Source of the DNA: Escherichia coli
GTDB lineage: Bacteria; Pseudomonadota; Gammaproteobacteria; Enterobacterales; Enterobacteriaceae
Strand: one strand, 5' to 3'
Assembly: GCF_044324785.1 (NCBI RefSeq)
Contig: NZ_CP172128.1
DNA length: 64,000 nt
Shown: in pieces, positions 1 to 3,000 of the stretch
Layout: each line of letters begins with the position of its first letter
Position numbering within the stretch: the first letter of the stretch is position 1
Program-made: the position numbers

Positions 1-3000
1 TTAACGCTGGAAAATATCAGAAAACTGAATGGCGGCTGGCAGTCTGTACCGAAGGATATTTTTACTCAGGTTGTACCACAAAGTCGCTTTAGTGGGCATC
101 GAATGGATATGCATCCGGTCAGTGATCATGAATGGCACAGAATGAGAACAGGGGCTGGCCCACAGGGGGCAATTAAGCGGGAGATTTTCTCTGACAAAGA
201 GAGTCTGTGGGGATATGCAGTCAGCCATTGTGCCCGTGATATTCAGTACATGATCTCTGAAGGGCGCTTTAGCTGGCAGAACTGCCATGAACTGTTTGCC
301 CGCAGTGGACTGATGTTACAGAAACTGCATCATGGTCTTGTGATTGTGGATGCGTTTAATCATGACCAGACACCGGTTAAAGCCAGCAGCATTCATCCGG
401 ATTTGACTTTGTCCAGAGCAGAGCCGCAGGCCGGGCCATTTGAAATTGCAGCGGCGGATATTTTCGATCGGGTGAAGCCTGAAAGCCGTTATAACCCTGA
501 TATGGCTGTCAGTGACAGTAAGGAACCCGGGTTTAAACGGGATCCTGAATTGCGCCGCCGTCGTCGTGAAACCCGTGCAGCTGCGCGGGAAGATTTACGT
601 GCGCGTTACCTTGCATGGAAGGAGCACTGGCGTAAACCCGATTTACGTTACGGCGAACGGTTACGGGAAGTTCATGCTGCCTGCCGCCGGCGCAAGGCGC
701 ATATCCGCGTACAGTTCAGGGATCCGCAAGTGCGTAAGCTGCATTACCATATTGCGGAAGTGCAGCGAATGCAGGCGCTGATCAGGCTGAAGGAAAGCGT
801 CAGGGAAGAGCGACTGTCGCTGATGGCGGAAGGTAAGTGGTACCCGCTGTCTTACAGGCAGTGGGTGGAGCAGATGGCGGTTCAGGGGGATTCTGCTGCT
901 GTATCTCAGTTACGTGGATGGAATTATCGCGACAGAAGGAATGATGAGGTGCTTTTAACCACGCCTCAACGCTGTGTGGTTCTTTGTGAACCAGGCTCCA
1001 CCCCGATTCACAGGGATATCGGTGGCATGGTGGCGACTTTGCAGCGTAATGGCAGTGTGCGTTTCCGTGATGCGACAACAGGAGAGTACGTCTGTACAGA
1101 TTATGGTGATCGCGTTGTTTTCAGCAACAGTGCCGATAACAAAACACTGAAGAAAAGGATGGTCAGGGTGTCCAGTGTGCTTTTTGCAAGGGATCCCCGA
1201 ATGGGGTTTGAGCCGGAAGGTCAGGATGCACAATTTAACCGTATGTTTGCTGATATGGTTGCGTGGAAAAACGTGCAGCGGGATGAGCGTAAGGGGCACT
1301 ACAGGATAAGTCGTTCTGATGTTGATCAACTGAGGGTCAGTAGTGAAAAACGTTTTCGTGATTATCTTAAAGGGCGTGATACTGAATCACACACTTACCA
1401 TCATGCAACGGATGAAAATAAGTGGGAGCCGCCATCACCGGGGATGTAAAAATCATGTAGACAGGGTGATTAAATCACCGTAATGTGTCCTCGTTGTGTA
1501 TACATTATGGGGGAGATATGCGAACACAGGTGACACTGCAAAAATGGGGCAACAGTATTGCTCTCCGGTTAACCGGAAATCTGAAAACCGTGCCGGGTTT
1601 TTCGGCAGGAGATGTGGTTGATGTGGAAATCAGTGAGAAAGGATTGATCGTGGAAAAACCGGTGAGACCTCGTCTTACAGAGGCTGTATTGCTTGCGGGG
1701 CTGACGCCATTTTCCGCGCATGCAGATGAAGCTGCCACTCTTCTTGATAAGGAGAGTGAGTTCTGATGTTTGTTCCAAAGCGTGGTGATATTTGCTGGCT
1801 TGATTTTGAACCCCAAAAAGGAAAAGAAATTGGCAAATATCGTCCGGCATTAATCCTGTCCCATGAGCAATATAATCGTTTAACAGGGCTTGTCATATGC
1901 TGCCCTGTCAGTACGAGTATCCGGGGCGCTCCAACAGAGGTTCCTGTTACTAATCTCGATGCACCAAGTGTGGTGGCCACAACGCTCATACAGACACTTG
2001 ACTGGCGGCAAAGGCAAGTGCGTTTAATTACGGAAGCAGAAGAGGGCGTATTTGATGAGGTGCTTGAGAGAGTGATCACTCTGATTGGTGGTGAACATTT
2101 ACTGAAGTGAAGGAGCCTGTTTAAGATTCTGTGTAAATGCCTTTCTCAGAAGTGACCGTCCAGGCGGTCACCGAACTCGATAATAAAGCGGCTCATTGCC
2201 ATTCGCCAGTCCTTCAACGGCATCGTCCATTTCTGGGACGCAGACTGGATTGCCAGCCACACCACTTTTTTCACCGAGTCGTCTGTCGGGAACACTTTAC
2301 GCTTTTTGATCGCATGGCGGATCACGCTGTTTAGCGACTCGATGGCATTCGTCGTATAGATCACTTTGAACCGCCCCGGAAATCCTGGAGACTAAACTTC
2401 CTGAGAAAGATGTAAACAGGATGACTAAAAATACTCGTTTTTCCCCCGAAGTCCGTCAACGGGCAGTTCGTATGGTTCTGGAAAGCCAGGGCGAATATGA
2501 CTCACAATGGGCGGCAATTTGTTCCATTGCTCCAAAGATTGGCTGTACGCCAGAGACCCTGCGTGTCTGGGTTCGCCAGCATGAGCGGGATACCGGGGGC
2601 GGTGATGGTGGGCTCACCACCGCTGAACGTCAGCGTCTGAAAGAGCTGGAACGCGAAAATCGTGAACTGCGCCGCAGTAACGATATCCTTCGCCAGGCTT
2701 CCGCTTATTTTGCGAAGGCGGAGTTCGACCGCCTCTGGAAAAAATAATGCCACTGCTGGATAAGCTGCGTGAGCTGCAGTGAGCTGCATATTGCCCCGTC
2801 AACGTATTACCACTGTCAGCAACAGCAGCATCATCCTGATAAACGCAGCGCCCGTGCGCAGCGTGATGACTGGCTGAAGAAAGAGATACAGCGCGTATAC
2901 GATGAAAATCACCAGGTGTACGGTGTGCGTAAAGTCTGGCGTCAGTTGTTACGGGAAGGTATCAGAGTGGCCAGATGCACTGTGACACGTCTTATGGCGG

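Follow-up and report, generated by a model that had tools for sequence, protein, structure and literature searches.

The window analyzed here, which is the whole 64,000-nucleotide stretch of Escherichia coli DNA from contig NZ_CP172128.1 (assembly GCF_044324785.1), carries at positions 1456-2110 what is probably a complete and selectively maintained type II toxin-antitoxin (TA) operon of the MazEF branch. It is located on an IncK2/Z conjugative plasmid, and by homology it would act in addiction of the host to the whole plasmid. A nest of insertion sequence (IS) elements, which begins immediately downstream of the toxin gene, arrived later. In the mechanism that we propose by analogy with characterized MazEF systems, the 114-amino acid (aa) toxin would be a ribosome-independent, sequence-specific endoribonuclease acting through Arg26 and Ser49, and the 82-aa antitoxin would block it with a C-terminal tail. 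The antitoxin dimer would also repress its own promoter through an AbrB-type N-terminal domain, for which we propose binding to two TGTA(G/T)ACA boxes overlapping the promoter and not to a 15-bp palindrome present in the same region. The antitoxin is expected to be labile, such that plasmid-free cells would be growth-arrested, thereby resulting in addiction to the whole plasmid.

The gene pair and its encoded proteins

The antitoxin gene occupies positions 1518-1766 of the plus strand (ATG at 1518, TGA at 1764-1766; 82 aa), and the toxin gene follows on the same strand at 1766-2110 (ATG at 1766, TGA at 2108-2110; 114 aa). The two genes overlap by one base in the sequence TGATG at 1764-1768. 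A small antitoxin gene upstream of an overlapping toxin gene on one strand is the layout of a type II TA operon, and this layout was identical in all fetched relatives in which both genes were present. The listing of open reading frames (ORFs) also permitted a longer antitoxin starting from GTG at 1485. However, the ATG at 1518 was favored as the start, since all homologs open with MRTQ there and RefSeq annotates the 82-aa form. A purine-rich ribosome-binding stretch, GGGGGAG, is located at 1509-1515 of the plus strand, and homologs show GGAG or GGAGG in the same place. In RefSeq, the antitoxin (WP_033810804.1) is annotated as "MazE" and the toxin (WP_032354044.1) as a PemK/MazF family toxin. 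Both proteins are therefore already annotated, and the module is an uncharacterized representative of a very well known kind. The IncK2 literature searched contained no paper on the pair and mentioned only RelE/ParE and hok/sok.

The toxin was compared with protein family models and solved structures. It matched the Pfam PemK_toxin family (PF02452) with 87.3 bits (E=1e-24; cutoff, 23.1), and the match aligned toxin residues 5-105 with profile positions 1-107 of 109. Solved MazF structures were matched with E-values from 4e-20 to 1e-17, the best of them over residues 2-108, which covers 107 of the 114 residues. The alignment with E. coli MazF (5ck9_A) was ungapped over residues 2-85, and the catalytic positions were kept in it; R29 and T52 of MazF, for which a role at the scissile phosphate has been reported (PMC10864209), correspond to R26 and S49 of the toxin, respectively. 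As for the branch to which the toxin belongs, MazF structures scored 66-75 bits (~66 for E. coli MazF), compared to ~31 bits for Kid/PemK (1m1f). In addition, the score with the NCBIfam MazF model (NF007386) was 94.5 bits, under the equivalog cutoff of 120, and that with the ChpB model was 45 bits against a cutoff of 129; the toxin did not reach the equivalog cutoff for any named E. coli system. A PemIK/Kid-type toxin, a MazF equivalog, and a ChpB equivalog were all ruled out by these scores. The toxin is thus a MazF-branch paralog that is distinct from E. coli MazF itself. The sequence-only reading had described the locus as a toxin-antitoxin pair of the MazEF/PemIK type. The pair and its superfamily were borne out by both ORFs and by the Pfam and structure matches, whereas the PemK/Kid part of the label was not, as the scores place the pair in the MazF branch. 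The toxin family comprised at least 838 clusters at an E-value of 1e-10 or better, mostly from Gammaproteobacteria. The characterized Salmonella arizonae MazF-SEA was ruled out as a close relative, as this 110-aa protein is Kid-like, and its U^ACG/U specificity is therefore not transferable to the plasmid toxin.

The antitoxin is predicted to bind DNA through an N-terminal domain of the MazE/AbrB/SpoVT type and to end in an acidic C-terminal tail. As a single sequence, it scored below the cutoff of Pfam PF04014 (17.8 versus 24.7 bits), and it matched the MazE chain 7d2n_E with E=2e-6 and the MazE structures 1mvf and 1ub4 with E=5e-4. A profile built from the 10-member antitoxin family matched the E. 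coli MazE structures 1mvf/1ub4 with E=6e-13 and AbrB with 9e-3, and PF04014 was matched by eight of the 10 members (best, 9e-12). The assignment to the MazE/AbrB-SpoVT class of N-terminal swapped-hairpin domains was thus reached via the family profile. For toxin and antitoxin alike, the top-scoring structure belonged to one and the same solved complex (7d2n), as expected for a cognate pair.

Compared with known systems, the pair resembles chromosomal E. coli MazE-MazF (1ub4, 5ck9) in its gene order, the AbrB-type fold of the antitoxin, and the PemK/MazF fold of the toxin. The toxins align over their full length with the catalytic Arg conserved and the Thr conservatively replaced by Ser. However, they share only ~35% identity (37 of 107 aligned positions) with a score under the NCBIfam MazF equivalog cutoff, the operator sequence differs, and the plasmid- and satellite-borne pair is not located next to relA. 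The MazE-MazF complex 7d28/7d2n/7d2p/7d2q gave the best match for both partners (toxin, E=4e-20; antitoxin, E=2e-6), although the toxin identity was ~41%. PemI-PemK of plasmid R100 and Kis-Kid of plasmid R1 belong to the same superfamily and exert plasmid addiction via an RNase toxin, which the present pair would also do. Nevertheless, the match to Kid was weak (31 bits for 1m1f versus 66-75 for MazF structures), so that the pair is of the PemIK type only at the superfamily level. Similarly, ChpBI-ChpBK of E. coli combines a PemK-fold toxin with an AbrB-type antitoxin, but the ChpB model score was far from that of an equivalog, as described above.

The nearest relative of the toxin was a chromosomal E. 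coli copy with 94% identity in protein and 80% in DNA. Against this relative, synonymous sites were saturated, and the ratio of nonsynonymous to synonymous substitution rates (dN/dS) was 0.018 in the toxin gene and 0.075 in the antitoxin gene. The N-terminal DNA-binding part of the antitoxin was 89% identical to that of the relative, and the C-terminal toxin-binding tail was 57% identical. All 15 plasmid copies of the pair were intact and at least 99.8% identical. The pair is therefore under purifying selection, and it is not a decaying remnant.

Relatives on satellite-like elements

The nearest relatives sit as terminal cargo at the edge of a ~13-kb integrated element (locus L014, 12001-24549; also L015 and L006-L012). 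The genes of this satellite-like element encode an integrase, a toprim primase, Icd-like and Ogr/Delta proteins, and a P2-family capsid-like protein. A copy was carried by 55 E. coli genomes with ~76% nucleotide identity, and by Salmonella also. The element was located beside hpt in one E. coli strain (L014) and elsewhere in strain GF60 (L015), and in L012 the pair was found between the capsid-like gene and an integrase gene. No psu gene was seen in the element, which may therefore differ from a classical P4. Strain GF60 has both copies of the pair, on the plasmid NZ_CP172186.1 and on the chromosome (NZ_CP172185.1, 1774982-1775574). As their toxins are 94% and their antitoxin tails 57% identical, cross-neutralization between the plasmid and chromosomal pairs seems possible. 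Other relatives were found in a Morganella prophage and on Vibrio plasmids, in one of which, pR99, the pair adjoins a TIR-domain gene.

These relatives bear on an alternative, namely that the pair is mainly an anti-phage abortive-infection module and travels as defense cargo between mobile elements. Infection would shut off host expression or destroy the antitoxin, the freed MazF-type RNase would stop translation, and the phage would fail. A defense hotspot between psu and int has been described for P4-like satellites (PMC9122126), and the position of the pair in L012 resembles it. The edge position of the nearest relatives, whose toxin shares 94% aa identity, is consistent with such cargo, as are the prophage location in Morganella and the neighboring TIR-domain gene in pR99. 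Likewise, the plasmid gap that holds the pair also holds a restriction-modification system in plasmid pA16EC0070-1, where genes for a cytosine methyltransferase and a type II restriction enzyme are located 3' of the pair (L001, 7098-9789). However, neither the toxin nor the antitoxin gave a match in PADLOC (PADLOC-DB 2.0), and the P4-hotspot literature searched did not mention MazF or PemK. Furthermore, the hotspot analogy is drawn for an element that is not a canonical P4, and a location in a variable slot would fit addiction cargo equally well. We therefore consider a mainly defensive role unlikely. We are equally reserved about a broader form of the idea, in which this MazEF subfamily may be exchangeable cargo of phage-satellite-like elements and conjugative plasmids. 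It would then act in conflicts between elements, either as abortive-infection defense or through a chromosomal antitoxin (WP_001260304.1) that neutralizes the plasmid toxin ("anti-addiction").

Promoter and operator candidates

A 68-nt gap separates the end of the upstream relaxase gene (1449) from the antitoxin ATG. At its 5' side lies box 1, TGTAGACAG, at 1456-1464 of the plus strand, which we propose as an operator half-site of the antitoxin. Its core TGTAGACA (1456-1463) contains a -35-like TAGACA at 1458-1463. The -10-like hexamer TAATGT follows after 17 nt at 1481-1486 on the plus strand, and the two hexamers would constitute the promoter, as read from the sequence. The same TAGACA-17 nt-TAATGT layout was also observed in the Salmonella locus L011, and the E. 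coli chromosomal locus L014 has TAGACA-17 nt-TATCCT. Box 2, TGTATACA, at 1497-1504 is palindromic and may be a second operator element or, alternatively, a -10-like TATACA. The same position is taken by the second TGTAGACA box in L014 and L011, and by TGTATACT in L013, L016, L017, and L025. Two matches to TGTAGACA with at most one mismatch occurred in the intergenic region in seven of 5000 shuffles, where the shuffles, as for all chance estimates given here, preserved mononucleotide but not dinucleotide composition.

Boxes of the GTAKAYAC type were observed three to five times per 110-nt upstream region in seven of seven loci, compared to ~0.27 expected by chance. These loci, which derive from an E. 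coli plasmid, the E. coli chromosome, Salmonella, Brenneria, Photorhabdus, Yersinia, and one sequencing-run assembly (Logan), share the antitoxin start MRT(Q/R)..LQKWGNS(I/V)ALRL. No such box was found in three loci with a different antitoxin N-terminus, which bear a GATATTAAAATAATATC-type palindrome, and the Vibrio plasmid clade has TTATAACAA repeats around a clear TTGACA/TATAAT promoter. Across L018, L026, L027, and L020-L022, the type of upstream repeat was observed to change together with the type of antitoxin N-terminus.

The sequence-only reading had started the module at 1465 and had pointed to a palindromic operator candidate upstream. Position 1465 is not a gene start; it is the first base of a perfect 15-bp palindrome at 1465-1479 (7+7 arms, GGTGATT and AATCACC around a central A). 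The palindrome is real, and the 17 nt that separate the -35-like from the -10-like hexamer consist mostly of it. Perfect arms of seven or more bases were reached in the 68-nt intergenic region in 81 of 5000 shuffles (1.6%), indicating that the palindrome is unlikely by chance, yet not strikingly so. On this basis, GGTGATTAAATCACC could itself be the true antitoxin operator, placed in the promoter spacer as in many TA operons, and a third copy of ATCACC at 1434-1439 would fit this idea. However, the palindrome was absent upstream of all homologous loci compared, even where the antitoxin N-terminal domain was 77-89% identical, and what these loci share instead are the GTAKAYAC boxes. This makes the palindrome a rather improbable operator. 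Since the boxes recur in homologs and the palindrome is missing there, we propose the two TGTA(G/T)ACA boxes (1456-1463 and 1497-1504) as the operator, as candidates only. The palindrome, which this assignment leaves unexplained, is a lineage-specific peculiarity of the promoter spacer.

Separately, an antisense promoter-like site, ATGACA-16 nt-TATATT, was observed inside the toxin gene on the minus strand (window 1896-1869; 10 of 12 matches). It is also present in plasmid pRM10042-1 and may be a chance occurrence.

The nikB-trbC gap and the IS1414-bounded nest

The first 25 kb of the window were 99.9% identical to plasmid pE32-3 and its sister plasmids, which are IncK2/Z plasmids of the MOBP and MPF_I types from chickens. 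The pair is located in the convergent gap between the nikB relaxase gene and trbC. The 3' part of the nikB-type MobP relaxase gene occupies 103-1449 of the plus strand (stop TAA at 1447-1449); it matched NCBIfam TraI_MobP_relax with E=1e-51 as well as Pfam TraI_middle, and it is annotated as a relaxase in pE32-3 and the sister plasmids. At high identity, 15 of the 72,556 plasmids in PLSDB carried the pair, as did 15 of the 5,426 E. coli genomes available as complete sequences, and all pair-bearing plasmids were IncK2/Z or IncI-gamma/K1. A common IncK2/Z backbone component was ruled out by this rarity and by the existence of TA-less IncK2/Z plasmids. In the TA-less plasmids, similarity to the window ends at the relaxase stop codon, and a TolA-C-domain gene is present in that place. 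In pRM10042-1, nikB is followed by the pair and, after 390 bp, by trbC, with no other gene in the gap, and pA16EC0070-1 has the restriction-modification genes described above. Because its contents differ among these plasmids, the nikB-trbC gap is a variable slot. In pMB7542_2, the slot after the relaxase gene (L005, 1523-1954) holds a TolA C-terminal-domain gene, with ISCro1, strAB, and sul2 after it.

The sequence-only reading had also placed an IS1414 end 2 bp after the toxin stop codon. Alignment to intact IS1414 confirmed this, and the distance is exact; the terminal repeat GAGCCTGT starts at 2113, and identity to the uninterrupted pA16EC0070-1 runs through 2112 and stops there. The remnant at 2113-2368 (minus strand) comprises element positions 1-257, that is, the terminal inverted repeat and the transposase C-terminus. 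It aligned from the first base of the element over 257 of 257 positions with 99.6% identity, and its ORF at 2146-2364 matched Pfam Transposase_mut and NCBIfam IS256-family models. At the other boundary, a full-length IS1414 carrying astA is located at 9846-11159 (minus strand), inverted relative to the remnant (blastn, 1315 of 1315 positions, 99.3%). The same IS1414 end type thus faces outward on both sides of a 9,047-bp nest (2113-11159), whose annotated content is IS elements and astA. The nest is flanked by direct copies of AAGTGAAG at 2105-2112, which holds the last codon and the stop of the toxin gene, and at 11160-11167, after which the original sequence downstream of the toxin gene continues. 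The uninterrupted target site reads CTGAAGTGAAGCTAAGCACAC in pA16EC0070-1 and pRM10042-1. Inverted ends at 2113 and 11159, a direct 8-bp duplication, and uninterrupted sites in two plasmids are the features of an IS-bounded composite insertion, and the nest is one insertion with an 8-bp target duplication. IS256-family elements duplicate 8-9 bp of their target. In the simplest model, a unit bounded by two inverted IS1414 copies would have entered 2 bp past the stop codon, duplicating AAGTGAAG, and the nest would then have been remodeled in place. As the duplication includes the last codon and the stop, the toxin ORF survived the insertion.

The boundary copies resemble IS1414, an IS256-family carrier of astA, and the ends of composite transposons in their terminal repeat GAGCCTGT, 99.3-99.6% identity, and 8-bp duplication. 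They differ in that only 257 bp are left of one copy and a nonsense codon interrupts the other. Both boundary copies are therefore defective, and the IS1414-bounded unit is now immobile on its own. The nonsense codon in the transposase gene of the full-length copy is a GAA-to-TAA change at ~10365, as compared with the intact copy in pRHB19-C13_3; astA (EAST1) within the same copy is annotated as 100% identical despite this codon. The remnant is truncated by an IS3-family element at 2368-3656 (plus strand), identified from its ORFs and annotated as "IS3 family transposase" in identical plasmids, with a broken orfB. This orfB is split into ORFs 2769-3083 and 3095-3613 and shows a short deletion near 2770. 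Identity to most E. coli copies of the element was only 90-95%; we take it to be IS629/IS1203, for which the annotation of one record gives weak support. In sister plasmids, additional insertions of a group II intron or of ISCro1 were seen, or segments were inverted. Shortly downstream of the right duplication, an inverted repeat was observed at 11202-11270, with arms of 31 nt that match perfectly around a 7-nt loop. It replaces ~190 bp that are present between the toxin gene and trbC in pRM10042-1 and pA16EC0070-1, and it may represent either a small hairpin element or the scar of a deletion.

The order of events can be deduced from these comparisons. The identical module adjoins an uninterrupted site in pRM10042-1 and pA16EC0070-1, so that the module predates the nest, and the nest has its own 8-bp target duplication, so that it arrived later. 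The pair thus entered the nikB-trbC slot first and the nest followed in the poultry lineage, and the pair is not part of the nest. This order bears on the earlier suggestion that the module stabilizes the adjacent accessory region, that is, the IS nest. In its favor are the physical adjacency of 2 bp, the finding of the nest in PLSDB only beside the module, and the IS1414 junction common to 13 of the 15 plasmids with the pair. However, the module also occurs without the nest, and the co-occurrence is explained by shared descent in one poultry-associated plasmid lineage. Moreover, deletion of the nest would leave the pair intact, so that the pair cannot select for retention of the nest and can only act on the whole replicon; in addition, the annotated IS elements and astA leave little to stabilize. 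A specific stabilization of the nest is thus without comparative support and very improbable, and the closeness of the module to the IS end is where the insertion happened to land, with no functional link. Least probable of all is a decaying or inert pair, with its expression upset by the insertion; although the insertion replaced the native 3' flank of the toxin gene and no terminator is predicted there, both ORFs are full length with their catalytic residues kept, dN/dS is 0.018-0.075, the module has the same sequence whether or not the plasmid carries the insertion, and the uninterrupted site likewise has no predicted terminator, so that nothing recognizable was lost (no plus-strand intrinsic terminator was found in window 1300-2450 or in the uninterrupted site).

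By correspondence with pE32-3, two Hok/Gef-type toxin genes are located at ~19627-19779 and 20348-20500 of the window, and the sister plasmid pLH50-c-A, like other IncK2/Z or IncI-gamma/K1 plasmids, has an annotated gene for DinQ-like DqlB. The Hok/Gef genes, together with DqlB in the sister plasmid, make the MazEF-type pair one of several candidate stability modules.

Several points weigh against a whole-plasmid addiction operon joined later by the nest. With Hok/Gef and the other modules present, the extra stability from the pair may be small, and the nearest relatives reside on a chromosomal satellite-like element, not on plasmids. We infer toxicity, neutralization, antitoxin lability, autorepression, and post-segregational killing with plasmid stabilization from membership in the MazEF family, and the toxin scores under the NCBIfam equivalog cutoffs of that family's named members (MazF, 94.5 versus 120; ChpB, 45 versus 129). 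As for the promoter, a sigma-70 consensus scan of window 1300-2450 and of the uninterrupted site gave no plus-strand promoter, and the -10-like TAATGT fits the consensus at only three of six positions. Box 2 deviates from the box consensus, and the spacing between boxes varies from 34 to 41 bp among loci. Finally, the whole nest was not found elsewhere in PLSDB but only beside the TA module, and we infer its movement as a composite transposon from its ends and duplication only.

On balance, we favor the addiction operon with a later nest. The finding matters little beyond annotation, and the IS junction is a textbook target-duplicated insertion, which dates the IS nest as a later arrival in the variable nikB-trbC slot. 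What is mildly new is the link between plasmid and satellite-like copies and the candidate operator motif TGTA(G/T)ACA, which tracks the antitoxin DNA-binding domain across genera. If the satellite link is functional, it would be one more case of TA cargo moving between satellites and plasmids. The pair adds one uncharacterized MazF-branch subfamily to the stability or defense systems of IncK2/Z plasmids associated with poultry, a group by which cephalosporin resistance is spread.

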